Shown one piece after another: positions 5,860 through 26,599 of a stretch of DNA of 64,000 nucleotides (positions within the stretch are counted from its first letter, which is position 1; the number at the start of each line of letters is the position of its first letter). The notes beneath the pieces were generated by a model. It saw nothing but the letters and a program-made list of their open reading frames with translations, did not search any database and was not told where the DNA came from. The stretch comes from a virus, in the IMG/VR virus record IMGVR_UViG_3300050821_010655, positions 12,697-76,696 of that record. One strand, 5' to 3'. Both the position numbers and the translations under genes were made by a program.

Positions 5860-7470
5860 TCACACCTTGATAATGTTCATCTCACGCGCCTGAACGCCGT
5901 AGGGTTCGGCTTCATTATCGACCAATAAAAATTGTGATAAGGTTCCGTCCTTGACCAACTCCAGCAGCCGCCGCACAATCGCCTGCCGCTTGTTGCCCGT
6001 CCGTTGCATCTCGTCAAAGATTAGGATTTTGGCGGGACTGTTCTGGCAGAGCGAGATTTGCAGGCCGGCATAGACCAGCAGTTTTTCAGTCCCGCTAAAG
6101 ACCTCGTGGGCAATCCACCGCCCGACCGGCGCGTCCATTCCCATTTTGCGATCCTGCTCGCTCACCCGCCGTCCAAAGTCTCCGTCCTTGTATTCCAGTG
6201 GCGAGTTCAAAATGCCGTCCGTGAACTTGCGGGCGATCTTGAGCAGCGTGCCAAATGCCTTCTCGGCCAACGACTGTTGGTGTTTCTCAAGTTGGGCTTT
6301 CATGTGCTTGATCACCACCTGCTCGGCCTCGGCTTGTCCAATCTTTTCTTTGGCTTTTGTCACCGCTTCTTTGTTCTGTTGGTGGGCGGTCCATTGGGTG
6401 TGCTGCTTGTCCAACAGATCAAACTTCTCCCATGCCTCATCCTTTGCCTTTTCAAGTTTCTTTGCCTGCGGGTCGTGCGGCTTCTTGTCAAACGCCGCCA
6501 GTTTGTTCTTGGCGTCGCCCAACGCCTTGCGAGTGCCCACTAAGTCAGCTTCCACTTCTTTGCGGTTTGCGTTTTTCATTTTCAACCATGCCTTCCGCCA
6601 GTCTGTTCCTTCATTCAGACAAGTCGGGCAACGGTCGAATTTCTTCATGCGGGTGATCTCACCATCAATCTCATCAATATCGTCCTTGGCTTCCCGCACC
6701 TTCTTTTCCGCCGCGTCAACCGCTACCGCCAGTTCATTGCGCTTGGTATCCTTGGGGATTGCCGCCGCCAAATCTGCCGCTTGAGATGCCTGCCGCGCTT
6801 TCTCACGCTCGGCGCTCACGTCCTTAGGTTCGTCCTGTGTTTTGAACGCGCTTACGACTGCCGATTGAGTTTTAATTGTGTCCTTGGCTTCCTTGTCAGC
6901 CGTTTCAAGCTGGGCCATCAGGGTTTTCATCCACAGGCAAATATTCTGTTTCTGCTTATTGCGCCACTCTATTCCTTTCATCAATAAGTCATACCACTTC
7001 CTGATCGCCACTTCGTTTCCGTTCTCGGGTAATTGCATGTCCTTGAGCAATTCACTTTCGTCATATCCCATCTTTTTCAAATCCACCCGTTCCAGCACGT
7101 AGGCCAGTTGGCGCTGCCCCGTCAGTTTGAAATACTCGTTAATGTCCATCATCACGTCAGGGAATCCAACTTGCAGGTCCATGCTCTTGCTATACCGCCC
7201 GTCGCTGTCGCGGCTGATCGTCACGCTATTGGTCATGCCGTTGTCAAAGGTCAGGCGGCAAAACAATTCCTTGTCGTCCGAACAAGGCTTGAATGTCGCG
7301 CTGTGCTCTTTACCTAGCGAGGCGATAACGCCATACATGCCTAATCTCAAGGCGCTGCCGATGGCGCTCTTGCCAGAAAACGGGTTGCCTACTATGAGGT
7401 TGGCCGATTGAAGACTGAGTTTGAGGTTGCGCCCCTGCCAAGAGGGGCATTTAAGTTCGGTAATGGTCAC
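5860..7470 (-). CDS. Rad50/SbcC-like ABC ATPase with zinc hook
   Basis: Walker A GNPFSGKS, coiled coils, central CPTC, signature FSGTE, Walker B ILIFDE; GTG start 7470 after GAAAGG. Confidence 0.85.
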   Translation of the reverse strand: MTITELKCPSWQGRNLKLSLQSANLIVGNPFSGKSAIGSALRLGMYGVIASLGKEHSATFKPCSDDKELFCRLTFDNGMTNSVTISRDSDGRYSKSMDLQVGFPDVMMDINEYFKLTGQRQLAYVLERVDLKKMGYDESELLKDMQLPENGNEVAIRKWYDLLMKGIEWRNKQKQNICLWMKTLMAQLETADKEAKDTIKTQSAVVSAFKTQDEPKDVSAEREKARQASQAADLAAAIPKDTKRNELAVAVDAAEKKVREAKDDIDEIDGEITRMKKFDRCPTCLNEGTDWRKAWLKMKNANRKEVEADLVGTRKALGDAKNKLAAFDKKPHDPQAKKLEKAKDEAWEKFDLLDKQHTQWTAHQQNKEAVTKAKEKIGQAEAEQVVIKHMKAQLEKHQQSLAEKAFGTLLKIARKFTDGILNSPLEYKDGDFGRRVSEQDRKMGMDAPVGRWIAHEVFSGTEKLLVYAGLQISLCQNSPAKILIFDEMQRTGNKRQAIVRRLLELVKDGTLSQFLLVDNEAEPYGVQAREMNIIKV

Positions 7471-7688
7471 TGCGGTCCTTTCGTTTTGTGGTTTGCGACG
7501 AATTGAGCAACGGCCCAACGCCGCTCAAATTGTTCTTTATAATGACCTGACAGTTCCGGGAGATAAGGAACCGCCTTCGACGCGGCAGCACAACTTCCGC
7601 AAGTGCATTCAATGGAATGCACCGAAACTTCACAGCACAGCCACATGGCAGCTTCGGTCAGCACTTTAAGTTTGTCATCTGTGTTCAT
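7467..7688 (-). CDS. hypothetical protein
   Basis: ORF with GTGA overlap to the next gene. Confidence 0.4.
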   Translation of the reverse strand: MNTDDKLKVLTEAAMWLCCEVSVHSIECTCGSCAAASKAVPYLPELSGHYKEQFERRWAVAQFVANHKTKGPQ

Positions 7689-7992: not shown

Positions 7993-8784
7993 CTATCTTT
8001 TGGATCGACCTTGTTTCTCGGGTTCCGGTTCTTCCTCGATGGGATCACACGGCAGATCGTCGGCGTAGCTGTGAGTGTCGGCATAAGGCTGGGCGTTCAT
8101 CGCAATAAACAACGTGCTGACCAACGCCTGAAACCATTCCGGCCCGATAGAGATGTCTTTCAAGTCCGGGTTTTCGTCCATGCACCGCTGGCCAATACTC
8201 GCCGCCGTCTTGAAGCACATGCAATAGAGGTTTTCCAACTGTCCAAGCCGATCTAGTGCGTCGTCTACGCCATTATCGCTCTCTTGCTTATGGCTTCTGG
8301 ATTCTTCACGTTCACTGCGGTCATCCTCACGTTCTCGACGGCGTGGGCGTTCTTCGGGTTCATCTGCTTCTGGCTCGTCCTCGCGTTGTCGGCGTCTAGG
8401 CTTTTCGTCCTCATCTTCATCGGTTGTGGCCGCGCCATTCACCACCTCAGCACTCTTGCTCACCTCCAGAATGCGCGTCACCTTGTCCTTGTATTCGTCG
8501 TCGCGGGCGAGCAAGCCATCGAGTTTGTTTCTCTTGTCTCGCGTGGCGACAAAATTGAATTCCTTGCCTTTGTCCTTGTCGGAGATGCGATCATGATCCC
8601 AGATCTTCACCTTTATCTCGTTGCCAGCGCGATCCTTCATCATTAGAATCTGAATCGACCCGTCGCTATTCTTGCCCACGCCGTCTTTCCAAGTGAAGAA
8701 TTGGGTGACCTTCCCGCGAAACGCCTTTACGATGTCACCGTCCTCTAAATCTTTTATGTCTTGAACTGTGAATACCTGCGGCAT
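7993..8784 (-). CDS. OB-fold (RPA-like) ssDNA-binding protein with acidic linker
   Basis: IKDLEDG..V..FRGKV...G.I..L.MKD.AGNEIKVKIWD resembles RPA-type OB folds; RBS GAAAGGA. Confidence 0.55.
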   Translation of the reverse strand: MPQVFTVQDIKDLEDGDIVKAFRGKVTQFFTWKDGVGKNSDGSIQILMMKDRAGNEIKVKIWDHDRISDKDKGKEFNFVATRDKRNKLDGLLARDDEYKDKVTRILEVSKSAEVVNGAATTDEDEDEKPRRRQREDEPEADEPEERPRRREREDDRSEREESRSHKQESDNGVDDALDRLGQLENLYCMCFKTAASIGQRCMDENPDLKDISIGPEWFQALVSTLFIAMNAQPYADTHSYADDLPCDPIEEEPEPEKQGRSKR

Positions 8785-8825
8785 TTGATTTCCTTTCGTT
8801 CTGTGGTTTGTGAATTTTTTCTAAA

Positions 8826-8867
8826 AGTTAAAGAGGGGGCGGTTGCTTATCACGCAAGCCCGCCCCC
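8826..8867 (-). terminator. GC hairpin followed by a U-rich tail; probable 3' end of the ncRNA
   Basis: GGGGGCGG...CCGCCCCC followed by TCTTTAACT on the minus strand. Confidence 0.65.
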
Positions 8868-9142
8868 AAGGTTAAAACGACGCCTTTTAGCTGTGTTCCA
8901 CAGATCGCCTGACACATCTTGAACCTAATCACAACGCCTTACCCCTAGACCACCCCGCCACATGGAGGCGGGGACGGGAATTGAACCCGCGTCTTTGCTT
9001 TGGGTTGTACCATCGATCCGTTTCACTTGTCGTTTCGTTTCTAAGCCTTCGGGTGAAAACTTAAGCCTTTATCCAGTGATCTTAAGTCTGACCTTGAGCC
9101 TTGGATGGGCTTTTCGCCAAAGCTACTAAGCCCCACCCGAAA
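8830..9142 (-). ncRNA. structured ncRNA with a permuted tRNA-like domain (Y-RNA/YrlA-like topology)
   Basis: T arm GCGGG-TTCAATT-CCCGT (8990-8974), acceptor CCCCGCC-TCCATGT-GGCGGGG (8973-8953), D arm GTCT-AGGGGTA-AGGC (8950-8936); enclosing helices CGGATCG/CGATCTG and AAACGAC/GTCGTTT; 5' domain closed by TTCGGGTG/CACCCGAA. Confidence 0.75.
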
Positions 9143-9910
9143 TTATGGTTTCTTGCCGTCAAAAACAAACCCAAGCAGGGCTTTGCCCATTTTTAGATTT
9201 GTCTCAACCTCCTGATCATTCGCCCGCGAACGCGCCTTGCGTACCGCCCGAATCGTCTGTTCCGCCCGATCAAGAATCTCCGATTTTTCAGCCGGGGTGA
9301 TCAACCCGGACCACTCTTGCTCCGAGATAGTGCCAACCACCAAGTCAACAGGCACGAGTTGCGTCTGCGCCGGGTGCTCTTTGGTTGGCTCGTGCAACAC
9401 CACCACCCGCACGTCTTTCTTGGTCCGTGCTTTGTTTACTTCGCGAGCCTTATAAATTCCACCGCCGCGTTGGGGGTCGTCCTGAAATCCCTTGGCGGGA
9501 TCGAGCGTCGGAATCGCCTTGGACAAATGAAGCACCCAATCGGTCAGCCGCTTTTCCAATTCCAAAAGGGCGGTGGCGGGAATGTCTTTGAGCAAGACCG
9601 TTCCGGCGTCATCGTCCAGAACCACATCGGCTCGTGCCTTGGTGTTGGCGTCCGCCACCTGCAACCCGGCATCCATTGCCTTTGCCAAATGTGGAACAAT
9701 CCATGCCAGTTCTCTACGCACCGTGCTTTGAATATCCGACTGCGCTTCGGTGGTGGCGGGTTTGCCCTCTTCGTTGGATTGGAAAGTGGTTCGCTTTTCC
9801 TCAAACAGATGGCGTTTCTTTTCAAAGGTGTTCGCCAAATCGGTTCGGGTTTGAATGGCTTGGGTTTCCAGATTTCCTTCGGCAGCTAACAGTTCGTGTA
9901 GTTTCGTCAT
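9143..9910 (-). CDS. conserved helical protein of unknown function, adjacent to the ncRNA
   Basis: KLHELLA, LLELEKRL, IPTLDP, RTKK, HPAQ, WSG, AVRKARSRAN motifs recall an uncharacterised family seen in actinomycetes and phages; has its own promoter. Confidence 0.8.
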   Translation of the reverse strand: MTKLHELLAAEGNLETQAIQTRTDLANTFEKKRHLFEEKRTTFQSNEEGKPATTEAQSDIQSTVRRELAWIVPHLAKAMDAGLQVADANTKARADVVLDDDAGTVLLKDIPATALLELEKRLTDWVLHLSKAIPTLDPAKGFQDDPQRGGGIYKAREVNKARTKKDVRVVVLHEPTKEHPAQTQLVPVDLVVGTISEQEWSGLITPAEKSEILDRAEQTIRAVRKARSRANDQEVETNLKMGKALLGFVFDGKKP

Positions 9911-9954
9911 ATTTTTGTGCTCTGCGGTTTATGGTTTCTCGGTCAACTGAAACC

Positions 9955-9988
9955 ACCTTGCCACACCAAGCCGAAAGGTGTCAATACA
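9955..9988 (-). promoter_or_regulatory. promoter TGTATTGACA-N18-CAAGGT
   Basis: Member of the repeated motif family. Confidence 0.65.
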
Positions 9989-12423: not shown

Positions 12424-12776
12424 GGCAGACCTCCTTTCGCTGCGGTGATTGAGTTGAGAACGTTTGTTCCTGCCATCAGCACATTTGCCGGGGCAGGACT
12501 CGTGAGGTTGTTTTCAGCCGCCACCACAGCCAGTCCAAAAACCTGCTGAAAGGTATTAAAGTACTGGCTGACTTGCGGAACCGAATTGGTTGCAACCTGA
12601 TGACTAACCACCAACAGCGTGTACGAATAGTCCGCTGCGTTGACGGCATTGCCGATAGCCGCCAAGGATGTGTAAGCCGCCGATTGAGGCGTTGACGATT
12701 TGAAGATCCCGCAACCTGCAAGCAGGAGGCAGGACACTGCCAGTGATGGCAATGTGCATTTAAGTTTTTTTGTCAT
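12420..12776 (-). CDS. lipoprotein (possibly spanin-like)
   Basis: Lipobox LLLAGC. Confidence 0.65.
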   Translation of the reverse strand: MTKKLKCTLPSLAVSCLLLAGCGIFKSSTPQSAAYTSLAAIGNAVNAADYSYTLLVVSHQVATNSVPQVSQYFNTFQQVFGLAVVAAENNLTSPAPANVLMAGTNVLNSITAAKGGLP

Positions 12777-17834: not shown

Positions 17835-20023
17835 TAATGAAATGTAGCTACACTCATCGAACCGCTCGTGGCGTTGCGTGGTGTGCAAGAGGACGATGCG
17901 GGTCCGGTAGCACGCTGGAATGAATCACAGGTGGTCAGTGCGCTTGGCTGGACAGTCTCCCCCATGCTCTCTCCTGATGGGACGCTTACCAAAAGTCCGT
18001 TACCGGAATCCACCATCAGCCCGAACACAAGTTCATCAGTGAAGCTTGTTGCCGCTGTATTACCGCTGTTGAACGCCGTGGTGCTGCTCATGTTCGCCGT
18101 GTGGGTTTTGTCGAACGGCTGGTAGAGTGCGAACCCGGCATATTCGTGAATGGCATAATGGAGGTCACTGCTCGTTGCCCCACTGATACTCACGGTAACG
18201 GTGTTGGCTCCCGCCACGCTGTTGCTGGCATAATAAATCCACGAATCATCTGCTGCGAGGCCGGTGTCGGTGGGTGCCTGCGCCACTGTATAGGTATTGT
18301 GACTGTCGGTAACTGTGACCGTTCGACCATGCACACTACCTCCGGCAACTACGAGCAGGCTTGCGGCCCGGTTCGTGATTGGAAACTGAACAGACAAACT
18401 CGATACCGCAGACCCCGCCGCGATGTTCGTGCTTTGAACAAAGAACTTTGGAGACGCTTGAGCCGTCCCGCCGCTAGGAAGAAATCCGACCATGTAGAAC
18501 GACATATCCCCACGAGGGGCAGTCGGAAGTCCCTGGTAATAGTTCGCTATAATGATTGGGGACGTGTCAGGAGTAATGCAGTGCGACCATGAATTATTCT
18601 GGTCTGGGTTGGAGGGTCCGTCCCTGGATTCGTTTGTCCAGACCTCGCAGTCAAAGCGCATGTTCCCGCCGAGTATGTTGGAAGTCGTCATAAACACTTC
18701 CTGCGCTTGGTTCAGAACAAATTCACCCGCAACCGAAGGCGTGAACCAGTGAGGCAACGCAAGCCCGTTCGTGTATTGGCCATTATCGTTGATGACCTGC
18801 TGCACGCCGTAATCGAATGGATAAAGTGAAGCTCCAACAATGTCATAAGCCATGATGGTCATGTCGCCGTTTTGTCCTACCTGATTCGTAACGTAAAGGT
18901 TCGCGCTGGCTACCAAGTTGCTGGCATAAACACAACAGGTGTTCGCACCACCAGACTGGATATGAACGACTACAGGATGACCAGCGGCAAGCGTGTAAGT
19001 GTTCCCTTGAGTATCAGTAGCATTTGTGGGATAACAAAGTGAACCGCCCGCCTGACACCCGAGCACAAGCAGATTGCCCACAGTCGGGAATTGAGAAACG
19101 CAGATTCGTCCTGCTGGCACTAAGGGTCCAGGCCAAGACTGATGTGAGATTCCAGCAACATACATTCCCGCTGGTCGTCCTACGCCTTGGGCCGTGGCAC
19201 TGGCTTTGAGAGCAATCGTCGCTGCGATGTATCGGGTAGCGTTGACGGTGCAGGTCATCTGAGGATTGATTGCCGCTGTCGCGCTATCGATTCCCCACTG
19301 CAAAGCATGGCCATCGTTCACGTCAACCGTCGTCAACGCCCATGTAATGTTGGCTTGGCTACCGGCAGTCCAAAACGATTGAATGGTCGAGCCGGTTCCG
19401 TATCTAACACCCCACTCTAGAATCAAGTCACCCGTCTGAGTTGGCGTGATACTTCCGGCGCTAATAGTTCCGCTGGCCGCTGACGTGAACGTGTTCGTCA
19501 CATCCATTGGACTATAAGGGATGATATCGTTTGCTTCCAACGCAACAGCTACAATATTCGACATGATGACCGTGCCGTTCGTGACGTAGATAAAATGAGT
19601 TCCCGCAGTGATGTTCGTTGCCGCATACCACCAGATAGCCTGGTTCCCGGTCGCATCATATCCATAAGTTTGCTGGCGGTAAACATTTCCCACATCATCA
19701 CCTATCCCGGCCCACACAGCAGGAGAAGTGGTCCGAGCTGATATGCCCATGAGCGCGGTATTTCCAGTCTGAGTGGGACTTGGAAAGTTGAACCGGACAA
19801 TCCCATTGGCCATCAAGTTTGTCCCTTGACCACTCACAGAATTGGAAAGGGAAGAAAAGCTAGTGCGTTGGAGGATGCTTGGAACAACTGCGCCGCTTGC
19901 AGGGACGGCCATGTAAGGCACGTTTCCGAGCGTTTGCATGTTGGGCTGCGCTGAGCCTCCCACGGTCTGAGCCTTTGCCGTAAATCCAAAGACCAGAGCC
20001 GCAATAAAAATCAACATCCTCAT
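17834..20023 (-). CDS. secreted beta-rich repeat protein (fibre/adhesin-like)
   Basis: Signal MRMLIFIAALVFGFTAKAQ; three similar domains (T.GN.L......D..GN.Y). Confidence 0.7.
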   Translation of the reverse strand: MRMLIFIAALVFGFTAKAQTVGGSAQPNMQTLGNVPYMAVPASGAVVPSILQRTSFSSLSNSVSGQGTNLMANGIVRFNFPSPTQTGNTALMGISARTTSPAVWAGIGDDVGNVYRQQTYGYDATGNQAIWWYAATNITAGTHFIYVTNGTVIMSNIVAVALEANDIIPYSPMDVTNTFTSAASGTISAGSITPTQTGDLILEWGVRYGTGSTIQSFWTAGSQANITWALTTVDVNDGHALQWGIDSATAAINPQMTCTVNATRYIAATIALKASATAQGVGRPAGMYVAGISHQSWPGPLVPAGRICVSQFPTVGNLLVLGCQAGGSLCYPTNATDTQGNTYTLAAGHPVVVHIQSGGANTCCVYASNLVASANLYVTNQVGQNGDMTIMAYDIVGASLYPFDYGVQQVINDNGQYTNGLALPHWFTPSVAGEFVLNQAQEVFMTTSNILGGNMRFDCEVWTNESRDGPSNPDQNNSWSHCITPDTSPIIIANYYQGLPTAPRGDMSFYMVGFLPSGGTAQASPKFFVQSTNIAAGSAVSSLSVQFPITNRAASLLVVAGGSVHGRTVTVTDSHNTYTVAQAPTDTGLAADDSWIYYASNSVAGANTVTVSISGATSSDLHYAIHEYAGFALYQPFDKTHTANMSSTTAFNSGNTAATSFTDELVFGLMVDSGNGLLVSVPSGESMGETVQPSALTTCDSFQRATGPASSSCTPRNATSGSMSVATFH

Positions 20024-23000
20024 GGATAAGTCAAAGTCTGCCACATTCCATTGGTCGTCGGAATCGAGATTGAGGCGTTCAACAGCCACTCAATATTCGT
20101 CGAGGTCCAGTAGGGCGAGCCGCCCCAGCTAGCAACTTGGATGTAGCAGTCGTCACCTGGATTCGGAGTGCCCGCGAGAGTGAATCCTGCCGTCATGTGC
20201 CAGTTCGTGCTGCAAGTCCCCGTCGTAATCGGTAGATTATTTGTGAACGTCACGGCAGTCCCGAGAGCCGTTCCGGCTCGCGCTCCCGCGAATGACCATA
20301 CGTTTGTAACCTTTGTGCTGAAATTAGTTCCCGAGGCCACGCCGACGGCCCCGGTTATCGATCCGCCTGTCGCGTAGTTCGGAGGCATCTTGAACTCAAG
20401 AATTGCGTTGTTCGTTCCGCTCGTGGACATCTGCCAGCCGAGGAATGTAAGCCCGGCGCTTTGGAGAAGGTTGAAGGCGGTTCCGGGAGTGTTGGTGGTC
20501 CACGTCATTGGGAGCGTATCTCCGGGACGGATGGCGACTGCTTTCCAAGTGATAACGGCCACGCCTCCTGTCAAAGCCCCAGAGTTTAGGTTAGTTAAAT
20601 TTCCTCCGTTGAACAAAGGCGCACGAGTATCATTGTTGGTCAACACACCTCCAGGTAACGCTCCCTGAGGGATAGTTCCGATAAGATTAGCAGCTTGTGG
20701 AGGCCAAATCTGATTGGTGGATGCTGTGCCTGTAATAGGATTGGTTTCAACTAGCCAGAGTCCGTAGCTATTCGAGTTCCAAAATATCATACCACCATTC
20801 CCGAGATTGGCGTAGCTTGCCGTCACTGGGAATGTATTGGAAGCCAGAACACCAGATGGAGGCGTGTTCGTGAGATTGACCCCATTAACTCCTGAACCGA
20901 TAGTGCCACCAGCAGCCAGAGCGTTTGCGGTCGTGGCAGTGGTTGCTGTGGTTGCCGTAGTCGCCAAGTCGGCAACTCCTGCGGTCGGCCAGATTTTATT
21001 GGTGTATCCCAATCCAGTTAGTGCATTCGTGCCTATCAAATAGAGCGCGTATCCATTGGAGTTCCAGAAGATCACGCTGGCTGTCGAAAGATTCGCAAAG
21101 CTCGCCGTAATCGGCAGTGTATTGCTCGCCAGGATGTATCCGCTAGAAGCGTTGACTAAACCATTGGTAACGGTCACAGTGTTAGCGGTAGTCAGGTTCT
21201 CCACGATTAATCCATCCGCCACCTCCAAGGCAAAATCTCCGTTGGCGAATGCTTGTACATTCGTTGAGACAACGGCATTAGTTAAAGTCCCGCCCCAAAT
21301 GTTGGTTCCTCCTGGAACCATGAGTTGCCCGCCGAATAGAGTGGCAGTGTCTCCCGCCCCCGCTAAATTATTCGTGAACGTGTACGCGAATCCCGCAGGA
21401 ATCATGCCGGCAATGATGTTCGTGTAATCCGCCGCAAATCCGAGAGTGGACGATGTGACTCCGACGCTATTGGTCACCGCGCCCGGTATCCACAGGTTAA
21501 CGTCCGATTGACCGGATACATTCGATACGTGCAGGTCAACGTTGGCCTGGACGATGATCGGGGCTCCGTAGAAATTGGTGTACCATTGGCTTGATATAAA
21601 GTTGGTCTGAATCAGAAGTCCGTTCGTGAACCCCGTGGCGAAGTCGGTCAAGGCGTAGTTGATGCTGCCGTCAGCGTTATAGTTCGATGCAACGGAACCG
21701 CCGCTGGCAAAAGTAACGTAAACTTTTGTCAAATTCGACAAACCGGCACCGTAGTTAGTCGAGAGTAATTGCAGGCCAGGTGGTAGTGCTGCGGTGGGAA
21801 CCGTATTGCTTGCCAGGTTCGCGGCGCTGATTCGTACATTCCACAACGCGGACCCGTCGGAGGCCCCGATGCTAGCGCCCGCGAGCAGATTGTTCGCCCA
21901 AGCTATGTTCGTCGCGGTCTCGCTCCAGGCGTTGGTGCTTGCACCAATCCAAAACGTCGAGAAAGTGACGGCAGACGCCGGACATACAATGGAGGACACA
22001 CCGTTGGCTGTAATCGGAAAGCGCAACACACAATTCGTTGCCGCACCGTTTGTTACTATCAGCGTCACCTGCGCCGGGTAGGCCGCATTGATTGGCCCGT
22101 AATAATTCGTCACCTGCATGTCGTTGGTGGTGGAATACGTCTGGAGCGAGTTCGTGACCACCAGGTAATTAGTCGGACCATTGAACGGCTGCGCGATCAG
22201 GTAGAAGGCATTTGTCGTGAAGTGAACCGAGTCCGCCGCCGTCGCATAAACGTCCATATTCGTGGCTACGCTCAGCCCGTTCCCGCCAAAATCGGTAAGT
22301 GTACCATCGTGCCATAGCAGATAAGAACCGTCCGCGTTGGTGAAATAAATTCCAGTCGAGGTATCCCAGATAATTAGGTTCGTAAATGTCGGGCCGTAGT
22401 AAGTACTGCCCCCGGGAGTGACCCACGTTTGATCGCCGCGCAGGAAGGTGCTGGAAGTGGCGGAACCGCTGCCGAGGCGGGCGGTGGGAATCGTGTTGCT
22501 GGCGATATTCGCACCACTGATCCTGACATTCCAAAGCGCCGAACCGTCTGAGGCCCCGATCACCGCCCCCGCCGCTAAATTGCTGGCCCAGGCGATATTG
22601 GTCTGCGTCTCGCTCCAGGCGTTGGTGCTTGCGCCGAGCCAGAAGGTGCAGAAGGTGACCGAGGAAGCCGGACATAGTATGCTGGTCAAATTGTTGCCTG
22701 TGAGAGGAAACCTCAACGTGCAATTCGTCGCCGCGCCGTTCGTTATCCATAACGTCACCTGGCCCGGAATGGCCGCGCTGCCACCCACGTAGTTGGTGAT
22801 CTGCATGTCATTGGTCGTCGTATAGGTCTGCAACTCGTTGGTCACCGCCAACAGGTTCGTCGGCCCCGCCCAGGTCTGCGCGAGAGTGTATTGCTCGTTG
22901 GTGACGTAGCCAACCGCTGAGGCCACCGAGGATGCCGTCTGGATGGCGTTGGTGAGGATGTAGTTCGTGACGGTTCCAGCATAAGGGGCATACGTCGCCA

Positions 23001-26000
23001 CTCCGCCCTGATTCAACGTAGCTGTGATGGTGCGATCCGCATTGGTGATTGCCGAAGCCACTGCGCTCCCAAGGAAATACACCCCAGGCACGAACAGTGC
23101 CGGTGTCTGACCAGACAGGTTTGTGATCGTGCTCGATAAATAATTTGTGGAAATTTGATAGTCCTGTAGCGGTATATTTGTGGTGTGATTCCAATCGCCC
23201 CAGGTGTTCCAGAAATAACCGCCGCTCAGTCCCGGCACCTTGTCCGCGCTCGTCAGATTCTTATTCGCATCGTAGGCCGCTACCGTGCTAGCGCTGGCGA
23301 GTTGGTTGGTGAGTCCATTAGTGGTGACGCCGAAGTTGAAGGAGAGCAGAGAAAACACATCCAGGTTCGTGGCCGTGGTCAACCCGGTCCCGCCCACCAT
23401 CGTCCAAGTGCCGTCATGCCACAGAGCATAAGATCCGTCCGCGTTGGTGAAGTAGATCCCCGAGGCGGTGTCCCACACTATCAGGTTGGTAAACAGTGGA
23501 CCGTAGTAGGTCGGAAACAGCGTAATGACGTGGTTGTTTGTGGTCGCTCCGGTTTGGATGATGCCCTGAATCGCATTGGCCACAATCTGCCCGAGCGCGT
23601 TCGTGACCGTCGTGGACAGGTAGTTCGTTGAAATCTGCCAATCCTGCAAGGGGATATTGGTGAGATGATTCCAATCGCCCCAGGTGTTCCATAGTGCCGC
23701 CCCGCTGCCGTTCGACAGGTTTGTCAATGCCGTCGTTCCGAACTGCGCCTTCCAGAGAGAGGCCAGTGATTGTCCATCCGAGTTCGTTAGCCCAGCAGCG
23801 AGGCCGTTAAACTGTCCCCCGAACAGGGTTGTCACGTTGTTGCTGAATATGGCTTGCCCTCCGTTCGTGAGTGTGCCGGTAATCAAGCCCCAGCCTTGAA
23901 CCCAAAGATTGCTTACAATGGTCAGGTTCGTGACGTTGTAGGTCGTCAATATACCGCCGCACAGGATCGCGGAAGGCGAGTTCGCCGCCGTCACATTGGT
24001 TTCCGTGAGGCAGCCGTTCGCTATCGTCACAACGAGTCCGTCTGTATTCGTCTCGCCCCAGCCGCCCGGATATTCCCAAGACCAGTTCGTGTTCTGAGTG
24101 CTGCCTCGGGCAATGATGGAGTTTGTGAATGGAACTGCCGACCCGCTGGCCGTCGAAGAAATTACACCTCCAGCCGCAGTGATTGTGGTGCCGTCAACTT
24201 TAACCGCTCCGAATGCGCTGGACGTGGCCAGTGGCAATAATCCCGGAGATACGGTTCCGGTGGTGAGCGCGGAGGCGTTGAGGTTTGTCCCCTGTGACAG
24301 GTCAAAACTCCAAGCCCAATTCGTGTTTGAATCCTCGGTCATAAACGCCCCGGCCATCGGGTTATTCGGCCCACCCCAGGTTTTCACCCCGGAGTCCACC
24401 AGCGCATCGTAGTAGCCATGCCCATAGAAAGTGATGGAAGCATTATTGATGGCCGACGCCTGCTGAATGGTGGTGGCCCCACGGTTAGAACCCACCTTGA
24501 TGATTGTCCCAGCTACTTCCACCGCGCAACTTGGGGCGTTCGCAGCAGTGATGCCTTGGCACGTAAGCGACCCGTTCGTGGCGATGATTTCCCCACCCGT
24601 GACGTAGGTGTGACCCAGCTTCGTGTTGATCCCGCGCATGGTCTGTCCTAGAGCGCCAGCGTCGAGGTTCGTATTGTAGGCCGACACCAAGGAGCAATTC
24701 TCAACCCGCAGGATTGAGTTTGTGTTTGCGGAAGCAGAGAACCCGGTGGGCAGGATCGTGATGCAGTCAAATGAACTGAACATTTTGCAGTTGCGGAATG
24801 TCGCGTCAAACGCACCCTGCAATCCCGCCGCTCCCGCCCGGTAAATAATGTCGGAGTAGTTGGTGAAGAACACCCCGTCGAACAAGATGTTTGCTGTAGT
24901 CAGCACCTGCGGACAGTTCAGGTAAACCGGAAACGAGAAACCAGTATTTAATGTCGGCTGACCCCAAATCTCCCCACCCAGCATTGTAAAGTTTCCATCA
25001 ATACTCAGGAGCGTCTGGTGGGTGACATCGCCTACGTAATTTGTGAAGTACAAACGCGCTCCGTAAGCGAGGAAAATGTCATTGGACATTGTGATAAAAC
25101 CATTGGTGTTGATGTAGGTCGAGGCGTCGTAAATCTCACCCGGCGCAAATCGAGTCACCTGCGCCGTTCCGGGCACCCTCAGCGCCACCCACCGTGCCCA
25201 GGTCTTGATTGGGTGCTGGGAATCCGCCCCGTTCCAGGCATCGTTTCCGTTCGTCGCATCGAACCAGAGCGATGGAGATGACGATAGGAAAAAGTTGATA
25301 TTGGTGCCATAGAGATTGGTCAGGCCGGAGCCATCGCCGGTGAAACCTGGATGGCCCGAACCGGCATAATTAACAAAACCTGCATTCCATCCCTGTAGCA
25401 AACTTGGAGACGGACCCAAGACAAGTGTGGGAGTTACGCCAACCGATCCAACACTCAGGCTGATGGCATCTGTAGCAATGCCTGTATTCGTAATCGTAAC
25501 AGGACTGTCCGCTAAGGAGTTTGTCAAACGCGGATAGTTCAAATAAGTGTTTGTCGCACCTCCGTTTGCCATCTGCACAAATTGAGATTGATAAACAGAG
25601 TTGCTTTGGCTGGCTATGTTGGCCGACAAAATGTTGACCACGTTGGTATCGGTCTGGGCGCTGACAATATTGTTGGGCGCACTAAAAATCACCGTTGTAT
25701 TTGAACCCGCAACCAGCGGTACTCCGCCCCCTCCACCAGTGCTATTGATGGTCACTAGGTTTCCATTAGTGACCGCCACCACGTTGGTTCCCGCCGCCAC
25801 GCCCACTCCAGTTGTTCCTACTCGGGCATACCGACTATCCGTCACTGCCGCCGCCCACGCCACGCTGCCTGCCGGGAAGGTCGCCGCGCTGGAAGCCACC
25901 ATAATATCAGCCGCATTCACCACACCGGAAACCGTGTTGGTGACAAAAATCTTGAACTGCTCCTGCGCCCCGCCAAAGGGTGAGGCGCGGACGGTGATCA

Positions 26001-26265
26001 GGTAAAGGTAAGGTTGGGCGTTTGAGAAATAGTAAATGCCGTTGGAGTCGGTCAATCCCTGTACGGTTGCGCCCAGAACTACCGAAGGCGATTGCGCGTT
26101 GGGCACGCTCATAGCCTGCACCCAAATCACGCGATTGGTGTAGTAGGGGGCGGCTTGTAAGCGAGAGTCGGTTAAATTCACTGCCACCGTCGTTGTCGTT
26201 TGGGCGGTCGCCCCAAGACAGACTAACAAGACAAACAGGATTAAAAGTCTAATTAAAGTTTTCAT
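20020..26265 (-). CDS. giant Thr/Asn-rich fibre/adhesin-like protein with signal peptide
   Basis: Signal MKTLIRLLILFVLLVCLGATAQ; GNDAWNG...P.KT followed by a beta-helix region; internal duplications; tail-fibre position. Confidence 0.75.
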   Translation of the reverse strand: MKTLIRLLILFVLLVCLGATAQTTTTVAVNLTDSRLQAAPYYTNRVIWVQAMSVPNAQSPSVVLGATVQGLTDSNGIYYFSNAQPYLYLITVRASPFGGAQEQFKIFVTNTVSGVVNAADIMVASSAATFPAGSVAWAAAVTDSRYARVGTTGVGVAAGTNVVAVTNGNLVTINSTGGGGGVPLVAGSNTTVIFSAPNNIVSAQTDTNVVNILSANIASQSNSVYQSQFVQMANGGATNTYLNYPRLTNSLADSPVTITNTGIATDAISLSVGSVGVTPTLVLGPSPSLLQGWNAGFVNYAGSGHPGFTGDGSGLTNLYGTNINFFLSSSPSLWFDATNGNDAWNGADSQHPIKTWARWVALRVPGTAQVTRFAPGEIYDASTYINTNGFITMSNDIFLAYGARLYFTNYVGDVTHQTLLSIDGNFTMLGGEIWGQPTLNTGFSFPVYLNCPQVLTTANILFDGVFFTNYSDIIYRAGAAGLQGAFDATFRNCKMFSSFDCITILPTGFSASANTNSILRVENCSLVSAYNTNLDAGALGQTMRGINTKLGHTYVTGGEIIATNGSLTCQGITAANAPSCAVEVAGTIIKVGSNRGATTIQQASAINNASITFYGHGYYDALVDSGVKTWGGPNNPMAGAFMTEDSNTNWAWSFDLSQGTNLNASALTTGTVSPGLLPLATSSAFGAVKVDGTTITAAGGVISSTASGSAVPFTNSIIARGSTQNTNWSWEYPGGWGETNTDGLVVTIANGCLTETNVTAANSPSAILCGGILTTYNVTNLTIVSNLWVQGWGLITGTLTNGGQAIFSNNVTTLFGGQFNGLAAGLTNSDGQSLASLWKAQFGTTALTNLSNGSGAALWNTWGDWNHLTNIPLQDWQISTNYLSTTVTNALGQIVANAIQGIIQTGATTNNHVITLFPTYYGPLFTNLIVWDTASGIYFTNADGSYALWHDGTWTMVGGTGLTTATNLDVFSLLSFNFGVTTNGLTNQLASASTVAAYDANKNLTSADKVPGLSGGYFWNTWGDWNHTTNIPLQDYQISTNYLSSTITNLSGQTPALFVPGVYFLGSAVASAITNADRTITATLNQGGVATYAPYAGTVTNYILTNAIQTASSVASAVGYVTNEQYTLAQTWAGPTNLLAVTNELQTYTTTNDMQITNYVGGSAAIPGQVTLWITNGAATNCTLRFPLTGNNLTSILCPASSVTFCTFWLGASTNAWSETQTNIAWASNLAAGAVIGASDGSALWNVRISGANIASNTIPTARLGSGSATSSTFLRGDQTWVTPGGSTYYGPTFTNLIIWDTSTGIYFTNADGSYLLWHDGTLTDFGGNGLSVATNMDVYATAADSVHFTTNAFYLIAQPFNGPTNYLVVTNSLQTYSTTNDMQVTNYYGPINAAYPAQVTLIVTNGAATNCVLRFPITANGVSSIVCPASAVTFSTFWIGASTNAWSETATNIAWANNLLAGASIGASDGSALWNVRISAANLASNTVPTAALPPGLQLLSTNYGAGLSNLTKVYVTFASGGSVASNYNADGSINYALTDFATGFTNGLLIQTNFISSQWYTNFYGAPIIVQANVDLHVSNVSGQSDVNLWIPGAVTNSVGVTSSTLGFAADYTNIIAGMIPAGFAYTFTNNLAGAGDTATLFGGQLMVPGGTNIWGGTLTNAVVSTNVQAFANGDFALEVADGLIVENLTTANTVTVTNGLVNASSGYILASNTLPITASFANLSTASVIFWNSNGYALYLIGTNALTGLGYTNKIWPTAGVADLATTATTATTATTANALAAGGTIGSGVNGVNLTNTPPSGVLASNTFPVTASYANLGNGGMIFWNSNSYGLWLVETNPITGTASTNQIWPPQAANLIGTIPQGALPGGVLTNNDTRAPLFNGGNLTNLNSGALTGGVAVITWKAVAIRPGDTLPMTWTTNTPGTAFNLLQSAGLTFLGWQMSTSGTNNAILEFKMPPNYATGGSITGAVGVASGTNFSTKVTNVWSFAGARAGTALGTAVTFTNNLPITTGTCSTNWHMTAGFTLAGTPNPGDDCYIQVASWGGSPYWTSTNIEWLLNASISIPTTNGMWQTLTYP
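21790..23700 (-). repeat. interleaved internal duplications in the giant protein gene
   Basis: WNTWGDWNH.TNIPLQD.QISTNYLS x2; YYGP.FTNLI.WDT..GIYFTNADGSY.LWHDGT x2; ~130-aa GPTN...ASTNAWSET.TNIAWA...ASNT.PTA x2. Confidence 0.85.
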
Positions 26266-26599
26266 TTTCAATCGTGGGTTCCCACTTCAGCCATTTAGGT
26301 GGATGGTCGGGACACTGTTCGGTCGAGAGCATAATCTTATTCACGAGCCATCCCGAAGTCCGGCACCCGCATAAACTGCATCTTTTGTCCGACGGTCTAA
26401 ACTTGTCGCACTTTTCACAAACAGACCACCGCTCTGCCTGAACTTCTTTGGGGGCTAAAATAGGTCTGTCGCAAACCGCTTGTGCCACCGTTCGCCCAAA
26501 CGCCATCGTCACGCTCGCCGCCTGACGCGCCAAGGACGGCAGTGCCGGTTCAGGTCGAACAGGTCCACGGGACGGGAATGGGTTTATAATATTTGTCAT
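26249..26599 (-). CDS. Cys-rich small protein (DUF6171-like)
   Basis: R..VCEKC......RCSLCGC......K.....E.CP..PPKW. Confidence 0.7.
   Translation of the reverse strand: MTNIINPFPSRGPVRPEPALPSLARQAASVTMAFGRTVAQAVCDRPILAPKEVQAERWSVCEKCDKFRPSDKRCSLCGCRTSGWLVNKIMLSTEQCPDHPPKWLKWEPTIENENFN

Follow-up and report, generated by a model that had tools for sequence, protein, structure and literature searches.

We analyzed a 64,000-nucleotide (nt) stretch of DNA from a soil phage (here called the window; positions 12,697 to 76,696 of the IMG/VR virus contig IMGVR_UViG_3300050821_010655) and found on its minus strand a gene for a DUF7873 protein followed by a structured noncoding RNA with a circularly permuted tRNA-like core (Table 1). 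The pair recurs in many phages and bacteria yet was found in no paper or RNA library, and for this reason DUF7873 and the RNA probably form an undescribed RNA-protein unit. A covariance model of the permuted core (R1) matched the element with 78 bits (E value, 1.6e-29), the only such match in the 64 kb. Relatives of the protein, at 30 to 64% identity, were gathered from 52 viral and 44 bacterial or archaeal loci.

The RNA is coupled to the DUF7873 gene. An earlier note on this DNA had paired the two and had proposed that the DNA downstream of homologous genes be inspected; R1 located the permuted element, with a fully paired (7/7) acceptor, 50 to 1600 nt downstream of the gene in 49/49 nonredundant viral loci. 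Among the 40 genomic loci with enough flanking sequence, 19 had a neighboring 7/7-paired element, and the other 21 were Cytophagales-type chromosomal copies with a terminator directly after the gene. The DUF7873 gene is present in 75 phage records, and the RNA follows it in all five of the cultured phages that were checked (Gordonia phage Ronaldo, Ralstonia phage phiRSL1, Vibrio phage D505, Rhizobium phage RHph_TM21B, and Klebsiella phage FBKp24). No protein gene conserved within 3 kb on either side of DUF7873 was found in the relatives.

Gene and RNA also co-occur when they are unlinked. Across 151 Cytophagales-type genomes, R1 matched at an E value of 1e-19 or better in 24 of the 26 genomes with DUF7873 versus 13 of the 125 without it (P = 2e-16), and with a stricter cutoff the counts were 22/26 versus 1/125. 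In 3 of the 13 RNA-only genomes, the match is a YrlA RNA beside a Ro60 gene. R1 also scores junctions between tandem tRNA genes, at lower levels, and we took the matches that lie ~100 nt apart in two RNA-only genomes (G048 and G081) to be such junctions. A Bernardetia genome (L104:300-1900, minus strand) carries three tandem copies of the whole RNA 135 kb from its single DUF7873 gene, each copy ~520 nt long and consisting of a repeat domain, a permuted head, a trailing tRNA-like unit, and its own terminator; three further genomes (G036, G117, and G054) have a similar unlinked multicopy layout. Because the gene and the RNA occur together whether adjacent or ~100 kb apart, the RNA is a separate gene with a functional tie to DUF7873.

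This arrangement leaves very little chance that the RNA acts only in cis or alone, as a 3' untranslated element that stabilizes, processes, or controls the DUF7873 mRNA with no stable particle. Such a role would fit the window itself, where the RNA begins at the stop codon and a separate promoter was not seen, and tRNA-like structures can serve as processing signals. It is contradicted by stand-alone RNA copies with their own terminators 76 to 151 kb from the gene in several genomes, by an extra open reading frame (ORF) between gene and RNA at two viral loci (L002 and L006), and by a promoter annotated between gene and RNA in the FBKp24 record. A 300-nt multidomain covarying RNA also far exceeds the needs of a processing signal.

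Table 1. Features of the DUF7873-RNA module and its surroundings in the window (RNA letters except at the promoter)
Feature	Position in window	Strand	Detail
Possible promoter	9955..9984	-	Perfect -35 TTGACA (9984-9979), 18-nt spacer, poor -10 CAAGGT (9960-9955; 2/6 matches)
DUF7873 protein gene, 255 amino acids	9143..9910	-	Pfam PF25283; stop codon 9145-9143
Whole structured noncoding RNA, about 310-320 nt	8823..9142	-	Starts directly behind the stop codon and ends with the U-rich tail
5' domain (95 nt)	9048..9141	-	Closed by helix P1 (9141-9134 with 9055-9048); holds hairpin P2 (9133-9128 with 9112-9107) and single-stranded NAG repeats
NAG repeat units	9042..9103	-	AG at 9101, 9094, 9089, 9082; 9068, 9061; 9048, 9042
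Long irregular stem bearing the tRNA-like head	8875..9035	-	AAACGAC (9035-9029)/GUCGUUU (8881-8875); CGGAUCG (9020-9014)/CGAUCUG (8907-8901); UGGUAC/GUGUCA
Circularly permuted tRNA-like core	8931..8998	-	Complete tRNA elbow in permuted order, without an anticodon loop
Anticodon-stem stub, 4 bp	8998-8995 with 8934-8931	-	GCAA with UUGU; runs into the long helix
T arm	8990-8974	-	GCGGG/UUCAAUU/CCCGU
Acceptor 3' strand	8973-8967	-	CCCCGCC
Acceptor-closing loop	8960..8966	-	Discriminator U plus CCA (8966-8963), linker UGU (8962-8960)
Predicted RNase P site	between 8960 and 8959	-	By analogy with M. smegmatis YrlA (PMC4201824)
Acceptor 5' strand	8959-8953	-	GGCGGGG; 7-bp acceptor with CCCCGCC
D arm	8950-8936	-	GUCU/AGGGGUA/AGGC
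Two further NAG units	8919..8930	-	UUAGGUU, CAAGAUG; 3' strand of the internal loop below the head
Terminal GC-rich hairpin (8867-8835) and U-rich tail	8823..8867	-	Likely intrinsic terminator; -22.9 kcal/mol, z -3.9

The RNA has a defined structure, and every part that had been listed for it from the sequence lies on the minus strand where it was described. From 5' to 3', the core consists of the stub GCAA, a 4-nt variable loop, the T arm, the acceptor 3' strand, U-CCA, a UGU linker, the acceptor 5' strand, UG, the D arm, G, and the stub UUGU. Where a tRNA or permuted tRNA gene would have an anticodon stem-loop with a 7-nt loop, the 4-bp stub here enters a long helix. The two outer helices proposed in the earlier note to enclose the core (CGGAUCG/CGAUCUG and AAACGAC/GUCGUUU) both appear in the minimum-energy fold. 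Beneath the head lies a conserved asymmetric internal loop, AACCCAAA opposite GAUUAGGUUCAAGAU. We rejected a K-turn reading of this GA/AAA loop, since a K-turn would have its bulge on the other side of the GA.

Covariation among relatives, the check that the earlier note had recommended, was seen for all four core helices by two approaches. RNAalifold predicted these helices unaided from 14 close relatives, with 18 of 20 pairs showing compensatory changes. In a column-pair analysis of 49 diverse sequences, 96% of cells were paired, and the covariation score was 0.93, versus 0.22 for shuffled columns and at most 0.19 for slid partners. The 49 sequences had been chosen by a pattern demanding perfect T and acceptor stems, so that the support for those two helices is partly circular. 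The anticodon-stem stub, which lies outside the selection pattern, was 85% paired, and each of its four pairs changed on both sides. Outside the core, helix P1 was 85% paired with compensatory changes at 2 pairs, and P2 was 77% paired, with both sides changing in 4 of 5 pairs and a GNRA tetraloop cap in most relatives. The inner helix of the carrying stem, the part of this stem that the covariation analysis covered, had moderate support (69% paired; the 4 pairs tested all changed on both sides).

The RNA as a whole folded with -112 kcal/mol (z -2.6), and 0 of 100 shuffled sequences folded as well. No ORF of at least 40 amino acids was found on the strand of the RNA in the 8823-9142 region. These values agree with the original description of a base-paired, ORF-free region that begins after the stop codon and ends in a GC hairpin and a U-rich tail. 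The terminal hairpin is followed by UCUUUAACUUUU; a strict terminator pattern misses it because the U tract is interrupted. The RNA ends in similar hairpins in relatives, and in close relatives (L004, L005, L007, L008, and L015) the loop of the terminal hairpin is also alike (CGUG-N-UAG-CG type). This hairpin may have a role beyond termination.

The 5' domain and the loop below the head together contain about ten NAG units in four groups. Close relatives keep GAUUAGRYU at the position of the two units below the head, and AGRYU was observed 147 times family-wide versus 58 times expected. The AG-to-AG spacing has a sharp peak at 6 nt in the close clade and the distant clade alike. TRAP and HutP, regulators of transcription attenuation, are ring-shaped proteins that bind spaced (G/U)AG repeats in single-stranded RNA; the RNAs that they bind lack a tRNA-like domain. 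By analogy only, the short regular spacing of the NAG units would suit one repeat per subunit of an oligomer. No sequence or fold likeness of DUF7873 to TRAP or HutP appeared in general fold and sequence searches, none of which was aimed at these proteins. We rejected a reading of the 5' repeats as a tag peptide (GCU CAA GGU CAG ACU UAA in the window), since relatives do not share the frame, which in L007 continues with no stop.

The nearest described case is YrlA of Mycobacterium smegmatis: its acceptor has 7 bp, RNase P cleaves the RNA both in vitro and in vivo, CCA is added, and the two halves remain in the particle (Chen et al. 2014, PMC4201824). The T arm/closed acceptor/D arm order that had been likened to YrlA is indeed the order of the phage element. 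As in YrlA, the ends of the RNA lie where an anticodon loop would be, a long stem carries the head, the gene for the RNA neighbors that of the (here presumed) protein partner, and the family occurs in bacteria and phages. Unlike YrlA, the partner gene encodes DUF7873 and not a TROVE (Ro60) protein, the CCA is encoded in the DNA instead of being added, a further 5' domain of 95 nt carries NAG repeats, and the RNA is two to three times longer. Literature on permuted or tRNA-like phage RNAs yielded only the YrlA work and unrelated items. Nothing in Rfam, the tRNA model included, matched the window at gathering thresholds, and the searches that the earlier note had advised with the YrlA, tmRNA, and tRNA models thus place the RNA in no Rfam family. 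Under relaxed settings, the YrlA model (RF02553) aligned over its full length with 23.2 bits (E value, 0.038; threshold, 69 bits), and the permuted tmRNA model (RF04321) gave 14.5 bits (threshold, 47 bits). No match to YrlA at the gathering level was obtained in 20 related loci.

These likenesses raise the question of whether the RNA is a Y RNA whose Ro60 protein comes from the host or from another part of the phage genome, with DUF7873 as an accessory of the Ro60 pathway. YrlA is the best Rfam match, and R1 scores Ro60-adjacent YrlA arrays at 35 to 62 bits. A TROVE gene is present in 3 of 10 related phage records and in 19 of the 26 DUF7873-positive versus 21 of the 125 negative genomes (P = 4e-8), a statistic that ignores shared ancestry. 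The window's record, in which no TROVE gene was found, as the earlier note had said of Ro60, is only 64% complete. However, five complete genomes of related phages and three bacterial genomes of one contig each, all with DUF7873 and the RNA, lack a TROVE gene, and 7 of the 26 positive genomes have no Ro60. The module therefore does not require a Ro60 gene. In one related phage locus (L005:5073-6741), a TROVE gene with YrlA-type RNAs of its own behind it (short acceptor loop, no CCA) is present 1.3 kb downstream of the module, so that the two systems stand side by side and this YrlA clearly differs from the DUF7873-linked RNA. The helix of YrlA that binds Ro60 carries a conserved GNCGAAN0-1G motif on its 5' strand (PMC4201824). 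That motif is absent from the conserved stem of the RNA; the sole near match, GGCGAAAAG (9118-9110), is part of the P2 loop, its spacer is 2 nt long, and relatives do not keep it, their P2 being GNRA capped. With this evidence on both sides, we consider a Ro60-dependent Y RNA unlikely.

The gene order of T arm, acceptor 3' strand, encoded CCA, spacer, and acceptor 5' strand is also that of permuted tmRNA, which matures to two base-paired pieces and has a dedicated protein partner, SmpB; the proposed two-piece form and DUF7873 would parallel these. The shared gene order and the weak RF04321 match are what speak for a two-piece tmRNA-like or otherwise aminoacylated RNA active in translation, an explanation that is largely refuted already and that we regard as extremely improbable. 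Unlike permuted tmRNA, the RNA has a full D arm and no tag frame, and DUF7873 is unrelated to SmpB. The G3:U70 alanine identity pair is absent; pair 3:70 is C:G in the window and G:U in 3/69 of the nonredundant elements over which we computed feature statistics. ARAGORN reported no tmRNA, the discriminator base is not fixed, a GCU frame has no stop in L007, variants with a closed acceptor exist, and a related phage (L033) carries a normal tmRNA too.

Family-wide, NCCA follows the acceptor 3' strand in 44 of the 69 elements, versus about one expected from chance alone. The linker after the CCA is 3 to 79 nt long, is 78% A+U, and ends in UAU in 31 of these 44, and G is at position +1 in 53/69. 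The acceptor sequence varies freely, as does the discriminator base (U in 26, A in 17, C in 15, and G in 11), and the tRNA-Cys identity to which the suggested likeness would point is not supported. With this variation and with CCA missing in 25/69, specific aminoacylation is unlikely as a conserved function. The earlier note had suggested a two-piece aminoacylatable RNA; the two-piece part is supported by the direct precedent, from experiments, of RNase P cutting in M. smegmatis YrlA (PMC4201824), and NCCA and a U at -1 (the latter in 31/44) are kept in most relatives, but the aminoacylation part is not supported.

The other function suggested at the outset, a decoy against anticodon nucleases, does not fit, because no member has an anticodon loop. 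A related possibility is that the cut RNA is a decoy or sponge whose free acceptor and CCA soak up toxins attacking tRNA 3' ends or acceptor stems, with DUF7873 only stabilizing it. The conserved NCCA, 7-bp acceptor, and intact elbow would suit such a sponge, as would the two or three tRNA-like heads per RNA in some relatives. Phage tRNA clusters have been linked to tRNA-directed defense, and the module is often placed inside such clusters (tRNA genes lie within 3 kb in 27/49 viral loci). We consider this quite improbable, given the 25 elements without CCA, many of them with a closed acceptor, and the chromosomal, unlinked occurrence of the pair in many bacteria, which fits a cellular housekeeping or stress role better than counterdefense. 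The protein, moreover, has no defense-family match (no match in NCBIfam or PADLOC).

The DUF7873 protein of the window is a full-length member of its family, with residues 1 to 251 aligned to positions 1 to 243 of the 244-position Pfam PF25283 profile (E value, 9e-62; 209 bits versus a cutoff of 27). The AlphaFold model (pLDDT, 92; pTM, 0.80) has four long helices and long beta hairpins, so that the protein, which had been described as helical, is not purely so. An N-terminal KLHELLA motif and a basic AxKKARxRAN stretch are near invariant among relatives. A Foldseek search of PDB and BFVD gave no match at an E value of 0.001 or better (E value of >0.005 and TM score of <0.2 for most rows), and we dismissed the Cas7 and ribosomal-protein rows as weak, with TM scores of <0.2. 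An exhaustive VIA-align structure search returned only generic helical bundles (best Z, 7.9), the ESM Atlas returned DUF7873 clusters only, a sequence profile search of PDB had a best E value of 0.54, and PHROGs matches were marginal. The term DUF7873 occurs in no searchable paper.

We give about even chances to the reading that the pair makes an RNA-protein particle on the YrlA plan with a different protein partner, in which the tRNA-like head engages tRNA enzymes, RNase P cuts the members of the CCA type, and the particle serves as a surveillance adaptor. We infer how such a particle would bind, be cleaved, and act as follows. The gene (9143-9910) and the RNA (9142-8823) would be a self-contained two-part module that yields a particle built on tRNA mimicry. 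The 5' domain would display about eight single-stranded NAG repeats ~6 nt apart, and several copies of DUF7873 would bind them. The tRNA-like head would be read by tRNA-handling enzymes, and RNase P would cut before G8959, by analogy with M. smegmatis YrlA, to give a two-piece RNA held together by helices and bearing an NCCA 3' end. During infection, the particle may then serve the surveillance of tRNA or RNA as an adaptor, much as Ro60-Y RNA particles tether an exonuclease, with a different protein. The phage protein AcrIIIA1, which binds tRNA fragments, is a loose analogy only. A more specific proposal, which we think doubtful, is a Ro60-independent ribonucleoprotein class in which a DUF7873 oligomer reads the NAG repeats and presents an RNase P-cut, CCA-ended tRNA mimic to tRNA enzymes or toxins, as adaptor or decoy, and in which a bacterial particle was borrowed into phage tRNA clusters.

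Several observations weigh against the particle reading. In the window, the NAG spacing is 5 to 7 nt instead of a strict 6, and the linker is merely 3 nt, which makes a tight 7-nt acceptor loop. About half of the elements that lack CCA close the acceptor with a linker hairpin that extends the stem; RNase P should not cut such extended hairpins, so that not every member can require a free CCA end. No RNA-binding domain was recognized in DUF7873, because its fold matches nothing. The co-occurrence of Ro60 with DUF7873 in 19 of 26 genomes makes a Ro60 link possible. ARAGORN found no tRNA gene in the 64-kb window, unlike in many relatives' loci, and among the sequencing runs listed with window sequence there was no RNA run and one DNA run, which may be from the source sample itself.

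The part of the RNA 3' of the first head varies among relatives. The window has nothing more there, L016 and L047 have a second permuted head, and others have a unit shaped like a tRNA with its parts in the usual order; several of these units have impossible anticodons. Right after the permuted element at five loci (L035:4374-4445, L036:4370-4441, L041:3154-3229, L021:4640-4711, and L023:3993-4067) are "tRNA genes" with A34 anticodons (att, atg) or malformed anticodon loops, which are probably the second tRNA-like domain of the same RNA and not working tRNAs. In FBKp24, an annotated "tRNA-OTHER / tRNA-Sup-TTA" (L112:2518-2597) looks like a misannotation; R1 has a first, partial match (2371-2431) just upstream of it and a second one (2547-2671) whose start it overlaps. 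The standard tmRNA of the related 189-kb phage (L033:2158-2525; tag, DKSYALAA) lies ~500 nt upstream of the DUF7873 gene, in the same RNA-gene cluster.

The source contig is 76.7 kb long and encodes a Mu-type portal, a large terminase, and a primase-helicase; every gene in the region of the module lies on the minus strand. The promoter that the earlier note placed at 9988-9955 stood up in part: the -35 hexamer and the spacer are good, but the -10 hexamer is poor, and a sigma-70 consensus scan did not report the candidate at 9984-9955. A transcription start between the upstream gene and DUF7873 is plausible, because the upstream gene has a terminator-like hairpin there (10167-10134). Downstream of the RNA, a 263-amino-acid protein (7993-8784, minus strand) matches no family and has in its middle a long low-complexity stretch that is acidic and arginine rich, and it is followed by a gene for a 552-amino-acid SMC/AAA_23-like ATPase (5860-7518, minus strand); neither gene is kept beside DUF7873 in relatives. 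The largest ORF of the window encodes 2083 amino acids (20020-26271, minus strand).

If the pair does form a true particle, it would be a second widespread design, after Ro60-Y RNA and SmpB-tmRNA, for RNA-protein machines centered on a tRNA look-alike. The NAG-repeat domain is not described for Y RNAs and constitutes a new RNA domain, and the protein partner is uncharacterized and has no recognizable fold. Current phage records label the region as tiny hypothetical genes or odd tRNAs, and in cultured phages the pair is unannotated or misannotated. The system is tractable, with carriers among cultured phages (those of Gordonia, Vibrio, Rhizobium, Ralstonia, and Klebsiella) and among bacteria that can be grown (Bernardetia, for example). 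Its co-occurrence with Ro60 and its placement in phage tRNA clusters may tie the module to tRNA surveillance or to tRNA conflicts during infection.

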